Source of the DNA: a virus
Strand: one strand, 5' to 3'
Length of the DNA: 64,000 nucleotides
Virus record (IMG/VR): IMGVR_UViG_3300025849_000031
Location: 3,508 to 67,507 of that record
Shown: positions 515 to 40,792 of the stretch, in pieces
How positions within the stretch are numbered: position 1 is the stretch's first letter
Layout of the letters: every line of letters starts with the position of its first letter
Notes under the pieces: generated by a model
Seen by the model: only the letters and a program-made list of their open reading frames with translations
Database searches by the model: none
What the model was told of the DNA's origin: nothing
Translations under genes and position numbers: made by a program

Positions 515-522
515 TATAAATA
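515..522 (+). promoter_or_regulatory. T4-type late promoter (gp55-dependent)
   Basis: Exact TATAAATA, intergenic, upstream of the portal gene. Confidence 0.8.
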
Positions 523-526
523 GTAG

Positions 527-552
527 TATGAGGGGGAATATTCCCCTTCATA
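527..552 (+). terminator. Stem-loop after gp19 (terminator or 5' stabilising hairpin)
   Basis: Near-perfect inverted repeat tatgagggggaatattccccttcata; only a weak U-tract follows. Confidence 0.5.
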
Positions 553-574
553 TTTACTATGAGGATTATAAGAC

Positions 575-2077
575 ATGGCTGAACTATTTGGCTTTGAGAT
601 AAAAAGAAAAGACGGTAAAAGTGCTGAAAAACCTTCAATAAAAACCTTTGTGCCAGATACAGAATCTGATGGTGCTGGGGTTATTAAAGCTGGTGGTCAT
701 TTTGGTTCATATATCGATCTTGATGGCAATAACGCAAGAAATGAGGCGGACTTAATTATTAAGTACCGTGATATTGCGTCGCATCCTGAATGTGATTCAG
801 CCATTGAAGACATTGTTAATGACGCAATCATTGGAGATTATGATTCATCTCCTGTAAATGTCGTATTAGATAAAGTAGATACTTCTGATGCTATTAAAGA
901 AACGATCAGAAGCGAATTCGATACCATTTTGGCTATGTTAAACTTTAGTCAACATGGTCATGATATATTCAAAAAATGGTATGTTGATGGCCGATTGCCA
1001 TATCATATTGTTATTGATACAAATAACCCTAAAAAGGGTATTCAGGATCTAAGATATATTGATCCTATTATGCTTCGTAAGATTAAAGAAGTCACAGAAG
1101 AAAAAGATCCTAAAACTGGTGCGCTTCTTGTTAGAAAATCAAATGAATTCTTTATGTACTCCGATCCTAATGCACAAAGTGATGTTGGTGGTCGTACAGA
1201 AGCACTAAAGATTCATAAGGATTCAATTGCATATTGCACGTCAGGTATGCTAGATCCATCACGAACAAGGATTCTTTCATACTTACAGAAAGCAGTTAAA
1301 CCAGTTAATCAGCTTCGTATGATGGAAGATTCATTAGTAATCTATCGTATATCACGTGCACCAGAACGAAGAATTTTTTATATTGATGTTGGTAACCTAC
1401 CGAAAGGTAAAGCTGAAGAATACCTAAAAGGTATTATGAATCAATATCGTAATAAACTTGTATACGATGCAAGCACCGGTAACCTTAAAGACGATAAGAA
1501 GCATATGTCAATGCTGGAAGATTTTTTCTTACCACGTCGAGAAGGTGGTAAAGGTACGGAGATTACGACATTACCAGGTGGTGAAAACCTTGGTCAGATT
1601 GATGATATTCTGTACTTCCAGAAGAAACTGTTTAAAGCTTTGAATGTACCACTAGGTCGTTTAGAATCAGATACTGGATTCTCACTAGGCAGATCATCTG
1701 AGATCAACAGGGAAGAAGTTAAGTTTAAGAAGTTTATTGATAAACTAAGAATGAGATTCTCTGATATATTCATGCAGCTACTTAAAACTCAGCTTATTCT
1801 AAAGGGTATTATCACCTCACAAGATTGGGATGAATGGAAAGAAGATATTAACTTTGATTTTATTGAAGATAACTACTTCTCAGAGTTAAAGGAGTCTGAA
1901 ATGATTCAACAGCGATTTGGTATGATGAGAGATATAGAAGACTATATTGGTAAGTATGTATCTCATCAATGGGTACTTAAAAATATTCTTCGACAAACTG
2001 AAGAAGAAATATTACAGATGCAGAAGGAAATCGCTGATGAAGGCGGTGGTCCAGATGCTGAAGACGAAGACGAATAA
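575..2077 (+). CDS. gp20: Portal vertex protein
   Basis: 500 aa; motifs LFGFEI, KKWYVDGR, EDSLVIYRISRAPERRIFYIDVGNLPK, MLEDFFLPRREGG. Confidence 0.97.
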   Translation: MAELFGFEIKRKDGKSAEKPSIKTFVPDTESDGAGVIKAGGHFGSYIDLDGNNARNEADLIIKYRDIASHPECDSAIEDIVNDAIIGDYDSSPVNVVLDKVDTSDAIKETIRSEFDTILAMLNFSQHGHDIFKKWYVDGRLPYHIVIDTNNPKKGIQDLRYIDPIMLRKIKEVTEEKDPKTGALLVRKSNEFFMYSDPNAQSDVGGRTEALKIHKDSIAYCTSGMLDPSRTRILSYLQKAVKPVNQLRMMEDSLVIYRISRAPERRIFYIDVGNLPKGKAEEYLKGIMNQYRNKLVYDASTGNLKDDKKHMSMLEDFFLPRREGGKGTEITTLPGGENLGQIDDILYFQKKLFKALNVPLGRLESDTGFSLGRSSEINREEVKFKKFIDKLRMRFSDIFMQLLKTQLILKGIITSQDWDEWKEDINFDFIEDNYFSELKESEMIQQRFGMMRDIEDYIGKYVSHQWVLKNILRQTEEEILQMQKEIADEGGGPDAEDEDE

Positions 2078-3194: not shown

Positions 3195-4319
3195 ATGTCT
3201 ATTGTAAACGAAGACATTGATAATGCAGAGCTAAGTGAAGAGCTCGTTGATGAGACACAAGTTGATTCATTAGACGAGGAAACACTTGAAGAGAAAGCTG
3301 CAGTCAAAAAGGAAGAAGACGAAGTCGATGAAGATGAGGACGAAGATGAAGTTGAAGTTGATGAAGGCGCTGAAGATGGCGTTGACGGCGGAGACGGTTC
3401 TGATGTTGGTTCTGATCAAGAAATTCCTAAGACTAAAGCTGGCATCTTGAATGCTGCATATTCAATGATGAAAAAAGCTAAGAAAGATGAAGCTATTAAA
3501 TTGTACCAAGGTATGATGAAAGCTGCTAATGTGAATGAAGATGTTGATGTTGAAGATGCTCTTGTATCTGAAAATGCCGATGTTTCTCACATTGACTATC
3601 AAGAAGATCTTGATGTACTAGTTGCTGAAGAAGCTACGCTATCCGATGGATTCCGTGGTAAAGCATCTACAATCTTTGAAGCCGCTTTAAAAACTAAAGT
3701 TGGTGCTGAGATTGATCGTCTTGAGAGTGAATACGCTCAAAACCTAGAAGAAGAAGTTTCTTCTGTTAAAACTGATTTAGTTGAGAAGGTTGATTCCTAC
3801 TTGAACTATGTAGTTGAAGGCTGGATGGGAGCCAATGAAGTTGCTGTTGAAGCAGGTCTACGTACCGAAATCGCAGAATCATTCATGACTTCTTTGCAAG
3901 GCGTATTTAAAGAGCACTATGTTAGTGTTCCTGAAGGCAAGGATGACTTGGTTGACGAATTGTCAGAACAAGTAGCTGAGCTAGAAGAGCAACTCAATAA
4001 AACCACTGACGAGAATATCCAATTATTCACATCCGTACAAGAGTCACAACGTGCAGATGTAGTAAGAAAATATACCTCTGACCTCGCAGCTACTGAAGCT
4101 GAAAAACTTTCTTCTTTGGTTGAAGATATAGAATTTGGCGATAGCGAAACTTTCGATATGAAAGTCAAGACTATCAAAGAATCTTACTTCATGAAAGAGT
4201 CTGTTGAATCAGAATCAGAAGTTGATAAAGTTGTTGGAACAGAACAAGCTCTTATTGAGCAAACTTCTGATTCAATGTCAAGATACACCTCAGCACTTAG
4301 TTCACACGTATTTAAGTAA
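3195..4319 (+). CDS. gp22: Prohead scaffolding core protein
   Basis: Acidic coiled coil; KASTIFEAA, KVDSYLNYVVEGW, FKEHYVSVPE motifs; between gp21 and gp23. Confidence 0.93.
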   Translation: MSIVNEDIDNAELSEELVDETQVDSLDEETLEEKAAVKKEEDEVDEDEDEDEVEVDEGAEDGVDGGDGSDVGSDQEIPKTKAGILNAAYSMMKKAKKDEAIKLYQGMMKAANVNEDVDVEDALVSENADVSHIDYQEDLDVLVAEEATLSDGFRGKASTIFEAALKTKVGAEIDRLESEYAQNLEEEVSSVKTDLVEKVDSYLNYVVEGWMGANEVAVEAGLRTEIAESFMTSLQGVFKEHYVSVPEGKDDLVDELSEQVAELEEQLNKTTDENIQLFTSVQESQRADVVRKYTSDLAATEAEKLSSLVEDIEFGDSETFDMKVKTIKESYFMKESVESESEVDKVVGTEQALIEQTSDSMSRYTSALSSHVFK

Positions 4320-17811: not shown

Positions 17812-18069
17812 ATGGATCGCAACTCAAATGCACGTTTGATTGAAGCACTCAAAAAAGGTACAGTGACTGTAACCTTTCAAAAAATTGACTCAGATGAAAT
17901 TCGGGTCATGCCTTGTACTCTCAACCCAACCCTTTTAGAAGCAAATGGTATTACATCTACCGTTGATGCTATCAGCCCCGACTCTGAACATTTGGCCGTA
18001 TGGTCACTTGATAAAGATGCTTGGCGATCGTTTCGTGTTTCAACGGTTATTGGTTGGGAGGTACTTTGA
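17812..18069 (+). CDS. WYL/SH3-like small protein (DUF2693-like)
   Basis: VTVTFQK...RVMPCTLN...VWSLDKDAWRSFR pattern. Confidence 0.65.
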   Translation: MDRNSNARLIEALKKGTVTVTFQKIDSDEIRVMPCTLNPTLLEANGITSTVDAISPDSEHLAVWSLDKDAWRSFRVSTVIGWEVL

Positions 18070-19007
18070 TGTCTAATGAATTTCTCTGGGTAGAAAAGTA
18101 TCGACCACAACGAATTAGTGACATAGTCTTACCTCGTACTATTAAAAAAACTTTTGAAGATATTGTTAAAGGAGGTGACCTACACAATATGCTTCTCACC
18201 GGTACAGCCGGTCTTGGTAAGACTACTGTCGCTAAGGCGTTATGCAAAGAACTCGATCTCGATTATATTCTAATCAATGGATCGGAAGAAGGCAATATCG
18301 ATACACTACGCGGCAAGATTAAGAAATTCGCTTCGACAGTTTCTCTTCAAGGTGGCTACAAAGTAGTCATCTTGGATGAGGCTGATTATCTTAATGCGCA
18401 ATCAACACAGCCAGCACTTCGTGGATTCATTGAAGAGTTCTCATCGAACTGCCGGTTTATTCTAACTTGTAACTTCAAGAATCGTATTATTGAACCATTA
18501 CATTCTCGTTGTACACCAATCGAATTCAATATTGCTAAGAAAGATCATCCTGCATTGATGGCTTCCTTTATGGAAAGATGCGGTATGATTCTTCAAGCTG
18601 AAGGTATTCAATACGATAAGGCAGTTATTGCTGAGATCATTATGAAATACTGTCCTGATTGGCGTCGTGTTCTTAATGAACTACAGCGTTATTCAGCATC
18701 AGGTGTAATTGATTCAGGCATCTTAGTTTCTATATCAGAAGTAAACATTGAAACTCTTATGAAGTCTCTCAAAGGAAAGAACTTCAAAGGTATGCGTCAA
18801 TGGGTTGTTGATAATATCGATGTAGAACCTGCTGCTCTCTTTCGTCAAATATACGATCACATGGGTGACTATATCGATCCTCAATCGATACCCCAAGTTG
18901 TTCTTATACTTGCAGACTATCAATATAAGAATGCATTCGTAGCAGATCATGAACTCAATGTAGTAGCTTGTCTTACTGAGATCATGGCAGGGTGTCAATT
19001 TAAATGA
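18069..19007 (+). CDS. gp44: Clamp loader large subunit
   Basis: Start MSNEFLWVEKYRP at 18069; GTAGLGKT, ILDEAD, SRC motif. Confidence 0.96.
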   Translation: MSNEFLWVEKYRPQRISDIVLPRTIKKTFEDIVKGGDLHNMLLTGTAGLGKTTVAKALCKELDLDYILINGSEEGNIDTLRGKIKKFASTVSLQGGYKVVILDEADYLNAQSTQPALRGFIEEFSSNCRFILTCNFKNRIIEPLHSRCTPIEFNIAKKDHPALMASFMERCGMILQAEGIQYDKAVIAEIIMKYCPDWRRVLNELQRYSASGVIDSGILVSISEVNIETLMKSLKGKNFKGMRQWVVDNIDVEPAALFRQIYDHMGDYIDPQSIPQVVLILADYQYKNAFVADHELNVVACLTEIMAGCQFK

Positions 19008-19381
19008 ACCCATTCGAATATATAAATGCAATCAACACAACCAAGAAAGATATCATGGTTGATGACATTGCTGAATCTAAATACGCACCGTTTATGGTTA
19101 ATAGAAGCTTATCGTATTTCCCAGACACGGTGTTGTATGCTAACGAAATGAATATTAACCACCACATTGACCATCGCCTTCAATTCGATTTCTTTATAAA
19201 TATAGTTAAGAAAAAGAAAAGATTCTCTAAATGGCTTAAACCTGAAGAGATTACTGATTTGAATGTAGTAAAAGAATATTATGGTTATAGCAATGAAAAG
19301 GCTAAATCCGTATTATCCTTATTTACTGATGAACAATTAACTGAATTGAGAAAAAGGATGTGCAAAGGTGGAAAACAATAA
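19004..19381 (+). CDS. gp62: Clamp loader small subunit
   Basis: PFEYINAIN, YAPFMVNRSLS, KEYYGYSNEKA; synteny. Confidence 0.92.
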   Translation: MNPFEYINAINTTKKDIMVDDIAESKYAPFMVNRSLSYFPDTVLYANEMNINHHIDHRLQFDFFINIVKKKKRFSKWLKPEEITDLNVVKEYYGYSNEKAKSVLSLFTDEQLTELRKRMCKGGKQ

Positions 19382-19784
19382 TCAAATACAATCGTGGACT
19401 CCGGCTGACATGCTGGAAGTTATACTCAACGAACCAGATGATTTTTTAAAGATTAAAGAAACATTGACTCGTATTGGAGTAGCATCGCGCAAAGACAACA
19501 AACTATATCAGAGCTGTCATATCTTGCATAAGCAGGGTAGATACTTTATAGTGCACTTTAAAGAGTTGTTCTTACTAGACGGTAAGCCATCTAACTTGAT
19601 CGAAAACGATATTGAACGACGTAACACCATTACTACGCTATTAAGTGATTGGGGTTTAGTTGAAATCGTTAATTCAGAGCAAGCATCTAGTAAAGCGCCA
19701 CTACGTCAAATTAAAGTTATTCCTCATAAAGATAAATCTCTATGGGAACTATGTACAAAATATAATATCGGTAATTCAAACTAA
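19368..19784 (+). CDS. regA: Translational repressor RegA
   Basis: PDDFLKIKETLTRIG, LYQSCHILHKQGRYFIVHFKELF. Confidence 0.96.
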   Translation: MENNNQIQSWTPADMLEVILNEPDDFLKIKETLTRIGVASRKDNKLYQSCHILHKQGRYFIVHFKELFLLDGKPSNLIENDIERRNTITTLLSDWGLVEIVNSEQASSKAPLRQIKVIPHKDKSLWELCTKYNIGNSN

Positions 19785-19796
19785 CGTTATTCTTTG

Positions 19797-19804
19797 TATA
19801 AATA
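19797..19804 (+). promoter_or_regulatory. T4-type late promoter for hsp20
   Basis: Exact TATAAATA, intergenic. Confidence 0.75.
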
Positions 19805-19809
19805 CCAAT

Positions 19810-19867
19810 GGACCGCCGGATAACCGGGGTTCTATTACTAACCTTGCTAAAAAAATAGGAGGTCAAA
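19810..19867 (+). promoter_or_regulatory. Candidate ROSE-type RNA thermometer in the hsp20 5' UTR
   Basis: Two hairpins; the second pairs ccUUGCUa with the SD uAGGAGG and leaves the G of UUGCU bulged. Confidence 0.6.
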
Positions 19868-20323
19868 ATGACTAATGCAAGACTACACGTACCACGTTCA
19901 CTTTTTCTCGGATTCGAGGGTTTATTCGATGATTTAGAAAGAATTCATTCAAACGCACGTAGTGGAGATAATTATCCGCCCCACAACGTTGTTAAAGTTG
20001 ATGATGAAAATTTCTTGATCGAGCTAGCAGTTGCCGGCTTTACTGAAGACGATTTAAACGTCGAAGTTAAAGAAGGTATACTAAAGATTGCCGGAGAAAT
20101 AAAAGATCAAGGGAATAATGAATACGTTCATAAAGGCATTTCGTCTCGCAGGTTTGAGAAATCATTTAGAATTTCTGAATTTGTAGTAATCGACGATGCA
20201 GATCTAAGGAATGGCATACTTGTGGTGAAAGCCAGAGTTGAATTTCCGGAAGAGAAGCGTCCTAGGAAGATCAATATCGGATCTGCTGGGACCTCAACCG
20301 AAAAAACCTTTATCCAAGATTGA
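19868..20323 (+). CDS. hsp20: Small heat shock protein (alpha-crystallin, IbpA-like)
   Basis: NYPPHNV, IELAVAGF, YVHKGISSRRFEKSF, NGILVV. Confidence 0.95.
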   Translation: MTNARLHVPRSLFLGFEGLFDDLERIHSNARSGDNYPPHNVVKVDDENFLIELAVAGFTEDDLNVEVKEGILKIAGEIKDQGNNEYVHKGISSRRFEKSFRISEFVVIDDADLRNGILVVKARVEFPEEKRPRKINIGSAGTSTEKTFIQD

Positions 20324-20368
20324 TTCGGGAGAATACTGGTAGAACTAACCAATCTACTGGAGAATATC

Positions 20369-20497
20369 ATGAAAAAATATTTAAACCAAGATTCGATTAA
20401 TTCTGCTCGTGAGAAGTGTAAAGTATGTGCACAGATCGCGAAGCTTACTGGCGCTTTAGCACTACCATTTGTTGTTATTTGGCTAGCTGCGCTTTAA
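20369..20497 (+). CDS. Small membrane-anchored peptide (42 aa) with CxxC
   Basis: GGAG RBS; MKKYLNQDSINSAREKCKVCAQIAKLTGALALPFVVIWLAAL; ends just before a terminator. Confidence 0.55.
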   Translation: MKKYLNQDSINSAREKCKVCAQIAKLTGALALPFVVIWLAAL

Positions 20498-33005: not shown

Positions 33006-34076
33006 ATGAGCGTTATGGATAAATTGAAAAAGAATTCTAAGATTAAGGAATCTTCGATTCTAAATGAAAGTAAGTTCTTTTCAGTAAAAGATCAAGTTGC
33101 AACCGATGTACCAATGGTAAACGTTGCACTATCAGGTGATCCAGATGGTGGTCTATCATCAGGTCTTACTGTACTTGCTGGTCCATCAAAGCACTTTAAA
33201 ACATCATTTGCTTTATTGATGGCTGGAGCATATCTAAGAAAACATAAAGATGCAGTATTGTTATTCTATGATTCCGAGTTTGGTTCACCTCAGTCATACT
33301 TCGAAACGTTTGGTATCGATACAAGTCGTGTATTGCATACTCCTATCGTTGATGTTGAACAACTTAAGTTTGATCTAGTTGGTCAATTGGATAATATTGA
33401 ACGTAAAGATAATGTGATTATCGTAATCGATTCTATTGGTAACCTTGCTTCTAAGAAAGAATTACAAGATGCTAAAGATGAGAAATCAGTTGCTGATATG
33501 TCTCGTGCTAAAGCTCTTAAGGGTTTATTCCGTATGGTAACACCATATCTTACAATGCGTAACATTCCATTGCTAGCTATTAATCATACGTATCAAGAGA
33601 TTGGTCTATTCCCTAAAGCAGTTGTTTCAGGTGGTACAGGTATCTACTACTCAGCCGATAACATCTGGATCTTAGGTCGTCGCCAAAACAAAACTGGTAC
33701 TGAAGTGACTGGTTATGACTTTGTAATTAACGTGGAGAAATCAAGGTTTGTTAAAGAAAAATCTAAAGTGCCTATTCAAGTCTCTTGGGACGGTGGTATT
33801 GAATCTTATTCAGGTTTGCTTGATGTTGCTCTTGATGGGAACTATGTTGCTAAGCCTAGCAACGGTTGGTATTGCCGTGTTGATCGCAGTACTGGTGAGT
33901 TGGTGCAACCTAAAGTTAGGGAAAAAGAGACTCTCAAGCAAGAGTTTTGGGAACCTATCTTTAAAGATACAGACTTTAAAAAGTATCTTACTGAAAAATA
34001 CCAAATTGGTGCTAAACAAGCTAACGCTAAAATAGCTGAAAATAACAGTGTACAAGGAACTGAAAATGAGTTATAA
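33006..34076 (+). CDS. uvsX: RecA-like recombinase UvsX
   Basis: AGPSKHFKT Walker A, FYDSEFG, IDSIGNLASKKE, VSGGTG. Confidence 0.96.
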   Translation: MSVMDKLKKNSKIKESSILNESKFFSVKDQVATDVPMVNVALSGDPDGGLSSGLTVLAGPSKHFKTSFALLMAGAYLRKHKDAVLLFYDSEFGSPQSYFETFGIDTSRVLHTPIVDVEQLKFDLVGQLDNIERKDNVIIVIDSIGNLASKKELQDAKDEKSVADMSRAKALKGLFRMVTPYLTMRNIPLLAINHTYQEIGLFPKAVVSGGTGIYYSADNIWILGRRQNKTGTEVTGYDFVINVEKSRFVKEKSKVPIQVSWDGGIESYSGLLDVALDGNYVAKPSNGWYCRVDRSTGELVQPKVREKETLKQEFWEPIFKDTDFKKYLTEKYQIGAKQANAKIAENNSVQGTENEL

Positions 34077-39406: not shown

Positions 39407-40792
39407 ATGATCAATTTTAATAGCTATCAGCCGATTACCGAAGGCGTCAAGCTTACACCTGCAGAGTTAACTAAACCTAATGGTGTCACGGGGGAAGATC
39501 GAGTTGATATTCTACTTCGCCTCATTAAAGATGGAAAGCCATTAGAGTTAGCTAAGGGTGGAACATTCGTTGTCACTGATATTGAACATGCTGTTGCTGG
39601 CATTGAAGCTTGGAAGAAAAATAAGTCTGATAAAAAACAAGCAATTGCTCTTAAAGGCGATAACGATGCGTTTATCACATCGTCTGATCTTAAGAAGGCT
39701 AAAGTCTTTGGTGGTGGGGGTGGTGCTGGAGGCGGTACTCTAAATACCAAAAATACTGAATCTCATCAGTGTGTAATGATCCAGGCAATGTTAGATCATG
39801 GCATTCAATCTGAAGAGTTCTTCACGGATGATATAATGAAAGCTGCTTATAAAAAGGTATTCGTTGATGCATCACTTGATGAAGTACTAAGTGTAGGTGA
39901 CAACTGGATAGCCTCTTCATATCAATCAGCCATGTTGCTTATTAAGAATGGTTATGTTAACAAAGGTATGACCTTCCATCGTGGCGACAAAGTCATGGCT
40001 CAAATCTATGCTAAAAAGAATATTGCATTTAAGAACAGTGGATTCCCTAATCTAAAAGATGATAAGTGGAATCCTGGTGATATCTGGGCTGTAGCAAAGA
40101 ATTTTAATGTTAAGAAAGAACTTGGCGATGACAGTGTTAAAACCCTCAACCTTGATATCCTAGAGCATTTCGTCAATCGTCGATTGGTTGGTATATCACT
40201 TAAGATAGTTAAGAAGAAAGGTAAGTTTGTCGAAATGAATGTTCAACGTCCACCCGATGTAGATGATCATAAAGTAAAAGAGATCTTATTACAAGGTAAA
40301 AGCCGTGGTGATTTTTGGTCTACTAAAGGCGGAACGGTTGTATACGATGTAGGTGAACTTATGCTTAAGGATAATAGCGCTGGTGGATCTGTTAAGATGG
40401 AACTCAAAGGTAAGACTGCTCGAGGGGGTGGTGCCGGTTGGGGTATCATAATGGATGCTATGAAGCAAGTCTTTGGTCGCGCTCCTGCTCCTAAGTTTAA
40501 AGCTGACGTATTCTCTGTTGCTAAAAAGATCGTAAAAGGTGATAAGAAATCAATTGAAAAGTTTTGGAAGATGTATAACCACTTCTATTCAAACGATACC
40601 TATGAAAACTTCTTAGCTAATCTAGAAAAGAAAGACCAGTTTTGGATTTCAGCCAAGCTAGGTGTTATGATTATATGTTATGAAGTATCAAAAAATACAG
40701 GCCCTAAGTCGAATAGGCTTATTACTAAGGTTGTTAACTATGCTGGATCAAAGGCAGAAGATTCAAGCTCGTACATTAAGGTATATGAATAA
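39407..40792 (+). CDS. Restriction-endonuclease-like PD-(D/E)xK protein with capsid-targeting-like leader
   Basis: TESHQC...WNPGDIW...GISLK catalytic-like pattern; leader MINFNSYQPITE. Confidence 0.55.
   Translation: MINFNSYQPITEGVKLTPAELTKPNGVTGEDRVDILLRLIKDGKPLELAKGGTFVVTDIEHAVAGIEAWKKNKSDKKQAIALKGDNDAFITSSDLKKAKVFGGGGGAGGGTLNTKNTESHQCVMIQAMLDHGIQSEEFFTDDIMKAAYKKVFVDASLDEVLSVGDNWIASSYQSAMLLIKNGYVNKGMTFHRGDKVMAQIYAKKNIAFKNSGFPNLKDDKWNPGDIWAVAKNFNVKKELGDDSVKTLNLDILEHFVNRRLVGISLKIVKKKGKFVEMNVQRPPDVDDHKVKEILLQGKSRGDFWSTKGGTVVYDVGELMLKDNSAGGSVKMELKGKTARGGGAGWGIIMDAMKQVFGRAPAPKFKADVFSVAKKIVKGDKKSIEKFWKMYNHFYSNDTYENFLANLEKKDQFWISAKLGVMIICYEVSKNTGPKSNRLITKVVNYAGSKAEDSSSYIKVYE

Follow-up and report, generated by a model that had tools for sequence, protein, structure and literature searches.

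Among described systems, the element considered here is closest to the ibpA leaders of Pseudomonas, which are short RNA thermometers of the ROSE-like type with two hairpins (Krajewski, Nagel and Narberhaus, 2013, PMC3669281; Rfam ROSE_3, RF02523). In these pseudomonal elements, hairpin II alone makes 30S subunit binding depend on temperature, and deletion of its bulged G locks the structure shut; hairpin I stays folded and is thought to aid folding or mRNA stability (PMC3669281). For the ROSE-like stem of P. stuartii oppF a crystal structure is available, which contains a U43.G61 pair, a bulged G44 and a C45-G60 pair, and there too deletion of the bulged G has an effect, reducing heat induction (PMC11342760). 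From phages and prophages, the fourU element of SP-beta blyA is a known RNA thermometer (PMC10586365). Here, we report a two-hairpin leader of the ROSE-like kind from an uncultured marine phage of the T4-like type. It precedes hsp20, a gene for a small heat-shock protein, in a 64,000-nucleotide stretch of DNA (positions 3,508 to 67,507 of IMG/VR virus record IMGVR_UViG_3300025849_000031; the whole stretch is referred to here as ‘the window’), which is part of a 67.7-kb record with an estimated completeness of 38%. This leader and its relatives most likely make up a lineage, in phages, of short leaders of the ROSE-like kind that stand behind a phage late promoter and mask the ribosome site.

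Lambda cIII is a phage RNA thermometer that works through alternative structures. In T4, the early transcripts of e, soc and I-TevI form hairpins that sequester the Shine-Dalgarno (SD) sequence; the late promoter of these genes lies inside the hairpin, and their late transcripts consequently come without the masking strand. As to ROSE elements, an earlier note on this DNA, made from the sequence alone, had interpreted the hsp20 leader as a ROSE-type thermometer and had stated that no characterised phage ROSE element was known to its author. Our literature search likewise found none, in that full-text searches returned no paper on a ROSE-like element, or on any thermometer, on phage hsp20. The observation made in that note is confirmed by the analysis presented here, and its interpretation is supported.

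Results

Predicted structure of the hsp20 leader

The hsp20 gene occupies 19868..20323 on the + strand and encodes a small heat-shock protein of 151 amino acids (Pfam PF00011, 54.7 bits, E 1.2e-14). Its AUG, at 19868, is separated from the predicted transcript start by a 58-nt leader, and all the elements described below lie on the same strand. A T4-type late-promoter motif, TATAAATA, is found at 19797..19804 and is followed, 5 nt further on, by hairpin 1 (19810..19832), a stable G+C-rich stem of 9 bp with an AUAA loop that is supported by both the fold and covariation. Its outer pairs are G19810-C19832, G19811.U19831, A19812-U19830, C19813-G19829 and C19814-G19828; then comes the bulged G19815, and beyond it the inner pairs C19816-G19827, C19817-G19826, G19818-C19825 and G19819-C19824. 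A linker (19833..19840), which is single-stranded in the leader-only fold and varies in length and sequence among relatives, leads to hairpin 2 (19841..19863), in which an anti-SD strand, ACCUUGCUA, and an SD strand, UAGGAGGU, enclose an A6 loop. This hairpin, assigned from the leader fold and from its conserved register, pairs CCUUGCU with the SD AGGAGG (19857..19862, 5 nt 5' of the AUG) through the outer pairs A19841-U19863, C19842-G19862, C19843-G19861, U19844-A19860 and U19845.G19859 and, beyond the bulged G19846, the inner pairs C19847-G19858, U19848-A19857 and A19849-U19856. The UUGCU at 19844..19848, identified by its conservation, is the U(U/C)GCU motif of ROSE elements.

We hold this two-hairpin structure with high confidence. 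When the 61-nt leader (19810-19870) was folded, the minimum free energy (MFE) structure and the centroid both consisted of exactly the two hairpins (-18.6 kcal/mol, z = -3.26), and none of the shuffled versions folded as well (0/200); the same software returned the two-hairpin topology for an ibpA leader of P. aeruginosa, the species in which Krajewski et al. validated the element, used as a control. In the leader-only RNA the SD is predicted to be 92% paired at 37 °C and the AUG to be unpaired, and the AUG becomes partly paired (UGACU with GGUCA) in a competing fold that arises when coding sequence is added. The positions at which the earlier note had placed the promoter motif, the two hairpins, the SD and the bulged G hold to the base, and the arrangement it had described in hairpin 2, with the SD paired and the G of UUGCU left bulged, is reproduced by this low-z leader-only fold and by its recurrence in related loci.

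Short two-hairpin ROSE-like elements are recognised by imperfect pairing of U(U/C)GCU with the SD, a bulged G opposite the SD, a hairpin I, a length of ~60 nt and a place in the 5' untranslated region of a small heat-shock protein gene, and the leader has each of these, the bulged G in the predicted structure. The usual bacterial context, a sigma-32 heat-shock promoter, was not found; the late-type TATAAATA motif stands 5' of hairpin 1 instead. Hairpins 1 and 2 have a local motif in common, namely a bulged G preceded by a U.G or C-G pair and followed by a C-G pair (Y[G]C...G|G). In hairpin 1 the bulged G is no less invariant than in hairpin 2, and the Rfam consensus for ROSE_3 has it too.

Conservation, covariation and covariance-model matches

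The earlier note had named covariation among phage hsp20 leaders and an Rfam covariance-model search as checks on its proposal. The former proved strongly positive for hairpin 1 and gave, for hairpin 2, a conserved register with some compensatory changes; the latter returned ROSE_3 as the sole relevant match, exactly on the leader but below the cut-off for that family.

A scan of IMG/VR with the Hsp20 protein yielded 80 loci, and the 74 with a complete gene start were used (65-100% Hsp20 identity). The promoter motif, hairpin 1 and the CYUUGCU...AGGAG hairpin were present in every one of them (74/74), and RNAalifold, applied to a plain MAFFT alignment, recovered both hairpins, each with its bulged G. 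Among 48 distinct leaders, 98.4% of the hairpin 1 cells were paired and seven of its eight pairs showed compensatory changes; the observed values were reached by none of the shuffles (0/500), and slid partners gave 20-58% pairing. MAFFT and covariance-model alignments shift the SD strand out of register in some rows, and the pairs of hairpin 2 were therefore counted by a script anchored on the bulged G. The hairpin 2 register was possible in all 49 leaders of the clade, and its six core pairs were kept in 40, 41, 41, 41, 40 and 35 of 41 distinct phage leaders. In these 41 leaders the pair 5' of the bulge was U.G (27), C-G (12) or U-A (2), which amounts to the U/C choice in U(U/C)GCU, and the pair 3' of the bulge was always C-G (41/41); the third inner pair was U-A (18), A-U (15) or C-G (1), and the fourth outer pair C-G (18), U-A (5) or A-U (3). 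In S-B68 the whole outer stem of hairpin 2 is replaced (UUUUAC/GUAAAA) and the bulged G is kept. Across 45 distinct leaders, UGC does not vary and the C, U and U beside it are conserved to at least 90%; both bulged Gs are invariant across leaders, and the loops, the linker and the SD-AUG spacer are free to vary. The compensatory changes in both stems indicate selection on RNA pairing.

Cyanophages were sampled through annotated records, as a single-protein scan of viral contigs with the S-PM2 Hsp20 gave only two loci. Reading of these sequences showed the leader in ACG-2014a, Syn33, S-SSM5, S-RIM2, S-B68, ACG-2014f, P-SSM5, MED4-213, S-CAM3 and AG-345-F15, mostly in the UCGCU form and often with a UUCG loop on hairpin 1. 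Hairpin 1 accompanies hsp20 even when a gene other than regA lies upstream, as in ACG-2014a, Syn33 and P-SSM5. The hsp20 start annotated in Synechococcus phage S-CAM3 (NC_031906.1, locus ~335-413) seems to be placed too far downstream: a ROSE-like hairpin (ACUCGCU...AGGAGU) and an in-frame ATG lie ~75 nt upstream of it.

The Rfam scan was permissive and covered window positions 19300-20400. ROSE_3 (gathering cut-off 43 bits) matched at 19807-19873 over the full model (22.4 bits, E 0.051), and classical ROSE (RF00435, a 94-position model with three to four hairpins) had no match in that interval at E up to 10. At the matching place, ROSE_3 scored 25.3-33.5 bits in six IMG/VR relatives, 34.1 in Melnitz-1, 26.8 in C48C1, 25.4 in locus L077, 35.1 in an S-PM2-like contig and 29.2 in MED4-213, and a Pseudomonas aeruginosa-type ibpA leader, the positive control, scored 69.2 bits. 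The phage elements are recognisably ROSE_3-like, though the curated threshold would not annotate them. The control leader precedes the hsp20 of an unverified record, OQ572409.1 (‘Pseudomonas phage Y7’), and matches ROSE_3 in full, in the manner of Pseudomonas ibpA; this part of the 22.6-kb unannotated record may be host rather than phage DNA, and the leader served only as a positive control and was not counted as a phage example.

A covariance model built from the IMG/VR hsp20 leaders (R1) was applied to loci outside its training set. It matched L077-L080 (46% protein identity, 26% G+C) at 35-36 bits, Melnitz-1 at 51, C48C1 at 40, S-PM2 at 35, Mosig at 27 and Pseudomonas phage phi30-2 at 23.5 bits, and several cyanophages as well. 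The present record has one copy of the ROSE-like leader; a further R1 match, at window 33411-33477 (20.8 bits), falls within a coding region, comes without hairpin 1 and was taken as chance. A scan of genome contigs returned mostly phage contigs binned into metagenome-assembled genomes (MAGs), together with two true alphaproteobacterial loci, of which only one (L102) matches classical ROSE RF00435, weakly (29.3 bits). Two of the MAG contigs, PBYU01000049.1 (L100, Gammaproteobacteria MAG) and CALBDR010000142.1 (L101, ‘Melainabacteria’ MAG), carry a phage-type hsp20 with its leader (R1 72 and 32 bits, respectively) and are probably phage contigs binned into bacterial MAGs.

Predicted stability of hairpin 2

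For hairpin 2, the predicted folding free energy (dG) rises from -8.5 kcal/mol at 20 °C to -5.1 at 37 °C, against -12.4 and -8.0 for hairpin II of P. aeruginosa at the same temperatures. Over 51 distinct phage leaders, the hairpin 2 region has a median dG37 of -3.6 (range -6.5 to -0.1), and all of them are weaker than the Pseudomonas control (-7.7). At ~20 °C the phage hairpins are therefore roughly as stable as that of Pseudomonas at ~40 °C, and this fits a lower set point in marine hosts. The phage leaders probably open with warming, and would probably do so at a lower set point than in Pseudomonas. Deletion of G19846 in silico gives a perfect 8-bp helix in which the SD is fully paired up to 60 °C.

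Promoter and transcript start

The window contains eight copies of TATAAATA, all on the + (coding) strand, with ~9 expected, i.e. a count not above chance. Five of the eight are intergenic and lie 20-65 nt before genes, namely those for portal, prohead-core and tail-tube proteins, hsp20 and the open reading frame (ORF) at 39407. As had been proposed, TATAAATA behaves as a late promoter and probably is one, because it also precedes the portal, prohead-core and tail-tube genes; its total count is not above chance, and this support is one of position and strand. A TATAAATA-type motif is found a few bases 5' of hairpin 1 in all 74 related loci (as ATAAATA in L022-L024), and the distance from motif to hairpin 1 is conserved. 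In place of TATAAATA, some cyanophages have a TATAAT-type (sigma-70-like) box, so the timing of expression may differ among lineages. In T4, the late-promoter motif occupies -13 to -6. By this rule, the late transcript is expected to start at ~G19810, with which hairpin 1 begins.

Four RNA-library runs contributed metatranscriptome contigs over the leader and hsp20, among them a 739-nt contig that extends from within regA into hsp20; such contigs show neither starts, strand nor level, DNA carry-over is possible, and uncovered stretches carry no meaning. A 90-nt contig of run X18 (record 20, cDNA metatranscriptome, window 19827-19894) begins with GG+GAACCGCUG. This corresponds to the base of hairpin 1 in a variant of the L004 type, the DNA of which has AT where the contig has GG. 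The contig end might mark a transcript 5' end that bears non-templated Gs and lies at the predicted late start, and we offer it only as a lead. The TATAAATA of the portal gene (window 515-575) is directly followed by a strong hairpin, AUGAGGGGGAAUAUUCCCCUUCAU (~528-551), and a 5'-terminal hairpin may be a common feature of the late mRNAs of this phage. In the largest related clade (L026, L036 and similar, ~1415-1432), a GNRA-loop hairpin, CAACGAAAGUUG, lies just past the regA stop and overlaps the late-promoter motif GTTGTATAAATA; the window does not have it.

Genomic setting

The gene order around hsp20 is that of a T4-like replication module, with clamp-loader genes (18021-19007 and 19004-19381), regA (19368-19784, PF01818), hsp20, an ORF of 42 amino acids 3' of hsp20 (20369-20497) and DNA polymerase (from 20610). 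Between regA and hsp20 is a gap of 83 nt, which contains the leader. In phages of Synechococcus, Prochlorococcus, Pelagibacter and Methylophilales, relatives of the gene carry the annotation Hsp20 or IbpA. Of the named phages, C48C1, Methylophilales phage Melnitz, Pelagibacter phage Mosig and many cyanomyoviruses come nearest, and all of these are Kyanoviridae or near that family. The product of the 42-amino-acid ORF has a hydrophobic C-terminal tail, and 16 related loci of the subclade to which the window belongs keep it at 44-100% identity. A hairpin of 8 bp, predicted for 20336-20343 with 20353-20360, overlaps the SD of this ORF (GGAG, 20359-20362).

Discussion

We propose that, late in infection, the T4-type late promoter TATAAATA would start the hsp20 mRNA at or near G19810, and because the transcript would start there, hairpin 1 would stand at its very 5' end. 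This stable hairpin probably anchors the folding or caps and protects the 5' end, a role also proposed for the hairpin I of ibpA in Pseudomonas. The helix of hairpin 2, on the other side of the linker, would be deliberately weak, with its U.G wobble, its bulged G and its A-U pairs by the loop; at low temperature it would bar 30S subunits from the ribosome site, and warming would melt it and allow Hsp20 to be translated. Because RNA alone would suffice, such a switch would be independent of the host heat-shock sigma factor and usable in any host. That the leader does act as a thermometer during infection is a proposition we consider fairly probable.

Several points weigh against it. No phage leader that we scored reaches the 43-bit cut-off of ROSE_3 (22.4 bits in the window, 25.3-35.1 in relatives). 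The compensatory evidence for hairpin 2 is thinner than that for hairpin 1, because its SD strand is constrained by ribosome binding, and the RNA-library data, being assembled contigs, do not show 5' ends. The predicted exposure of the SD in the leader-only RNA rises just from 0.03 at 20 °C to 0.10 at 42 °C. Once at least 18 nt of coding sequence are included, ViennaRNA prefers another pairing over hairpin 2 by 1.4-2.6 kcal/mol, and the anti-SD of several relatives is predicted to pair with AUGGUAAG at the start codon.

The nearly flat exposure curve, which changes little between 10 and 42 °C, would be expected of a leader that serves as a constitutive translational damper and mRNA stabiliser, in which hairpin 2 fixes a low rate of Hsp20 synthesis, hairpin 1 protects the 5' end and temperature has no physiological role. 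In its favour, both hairpins are conserved, and portal, another late gene, also has a 5' hairpin directly after TATAAATA, so that such a structure may be general in the late mRNAs of this phage. We nevertheless regard a constitutive damper as unlikely. The flat curve says little either way, because the validated Pseudomonas element is equally flat in silico; the thermosensor motif (U.G or C-G, bulged G, C-G) is invariant across phages of very different hosts, whereas a damper needs no destabilising bulge; and hairpin 2 is systematically weaker than its Pseudomonas counterpart, as expected for cooler habitats. The competing fold raises a different prospect, a two-state switch in which the anti-SD CUUGC alternates between the SD and GCAAG in codons 4-5 (19877..19881, + strand; AUGGUAAG in relatives), and control is exerted by competition, e.g. 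through co-transcriptional folding or ribosome traffic, rather than by melting. Its structure joins CUUGC (19843-19847) to GCAAG and GGUCA (19861-19865) to UGACU (19869-19873), and it is the MFE choice with at least 18 coding nt in the window's clade, in L037 and in L021. A G(C/U)AAG partner, present as the equivalent GUAAG of AUGGUAAG in the largest related clade and in Melnitz, is found in Melnitz and in two clades with different N-terminal peptides (MTNAR vs. MVRN or MVSN). However, no such partner exists in L022, L077 or the cyanophages, whereas hairpin 2 is universal; the energy gap is within the error of the nearest-neighbour model, and long-context MFE folding also disrupts hairpin I of the Pseudomonas control, which experiment has shown to be stable (PMC3669281). 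Because the partner is absent from several lineages and long-context MFE misfolds the Pseudomonas hairpin, we rank the competing fold as a minor rival and hold a two-state switch to be quite improbable; the pairing of the anti-SD at the start codon or codons 4-5 may be a second mask of the start site, or coincidence.

One could also read the conserved letters as acting on DNA or protein, with TTGCT(T/A)A as a MotA-box-like middle promoter or a RegA operator and hairpin 1 as the terminator of regA. Many relatives do read TTGCTTA, which resembles the T4 MotA box, regA is immediately upstream, and hairpin 1 is G+C-rich. Yet a -30 box at 19845 would put transcript starts past the AUG. The terminator scan does not call hairpin 1, no U-run follows it, and hsp20 retains both hairpin 1 and the motif when its neighbour is a gene other than regA. 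The MotA profile PF09114 had no match in the phage's own record (38% complete), but it matched no control genome either, and this result carries no weight. T4 RegA sites lie in the spacer between SD and AUG, which in these leaders is not conserved. With selection on RNA pairing indicated by compensatory changes in both stems, we find an element of this kind scarcely credible.

A ROSE-like leader that masks the ribosome site and yields to warming is accordingly the reading we prefer, and it would give a handle on the role of phage hsp20 in infection. The gene is a core gene of T4-like cyanophages (PMC3037559), and the paper on Melnitz and a comparative paper on cyanomyoviruses mention it only as such. 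The leader predicts that phage Hsp20 is made late, alongside virion proteins, and in an amount that depends on temperature. Extended to the whole group, the proposal is that T4-like phages of the sea (Kyanoviridae and relatives, with cyanobacteria, SAR11 and OM43 as hosts) possess a host-independent RNA thermometer that sets chaperone dose by sea temperature, with hairpins tuned to the habitat of the host, and that the leader is a portable cassette, moved with chaperone genes between bacteria and phages and re-wired from sigma-32 to phage promoters; we put the chances for and against this wider proposal at about equal. If true, this would be the first family of RNA thermometers for which conservation across a large virus group is shown, it would need no host factors and could operate in cyanobacteria, SAR11 and OM43 alike, and it would concern phages that are among the most abundant viruses of the ocean. 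Short A+U-rich phage leaders could also serve as low-temperature thermosensor parts. Cultured phage-host pairs with the leader exist in S-PM2 on Synechococcus WH7803, Melnitz on OM43 H5P1 and Mosig on HTCC1062.

Comparison with known systems

The phage leader resembles that of Pseudomonas ibpA in its ~60-nt length, its place before a small heat-shock gene, its two hairpins and an AUG that remains outside the hairpin. The likeness extends to the details of both hairpins: hairpin I is G+C-rich, with a bulged G then CC(G), and the GGAUGCCGAA..CGGGUCC of phage relatives is almost the Rfam consensus, and hairpin II pairs CU(U/C)GCU with AGGAG and leaves the G bulged. Unlike the pseudomonal elements, the phage leaders are located in virus genomes, score 22-35 bits vs. 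the cut-off of 43, follow the phage late-type TATAAATA (TATAAT in some cyanophages) rather than a sigma-32 promoter, and have a hairpin II that is more A+U-rich and predicted to be weaker (dG37 -5.1 here and a median of -3.6 in phages vs. -7.7 to -8.0 in P. aeruginosa). With the Rhizobiales ROSE elements (RF00435) and the enterobacterial ibpA leader they have in common U(U/C)GCU, a bulged G opposite the SD and a position before small heat-shock genes, but those leaders are built of three to four hairpins, the last of which is longer (PMC3669281). The crystallised stem of P. stuartii oppF is matched in local geometry by the predicted U19845.G19859, G19846 and C19847-G19858, although that element is bacterial and precedes ABC transporter genes.

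Among phage systems, lambda cIII and SP-beta blyA likewise place translation of a phage or prophage gene under temperature-sensitive mRNA structure, as is predicted here. Their motifs are unrelated to that of the hsp20 leader (alternative structures in the one, UUUU opposite the SD in the other), the genes under their control are a lysis-lysogeny and an autolysin gene rather than one for a chaperone, and each is a single case, with no conservation across a phage family. The likeness to T4 e, soc and I-TevI is that, in a T4-type phage, a late promoter goes together with an SD concealed by a hairpin; unlike in those genes, it is the late transcript that carries the mask here, because the promoter lies upstream of both strands.

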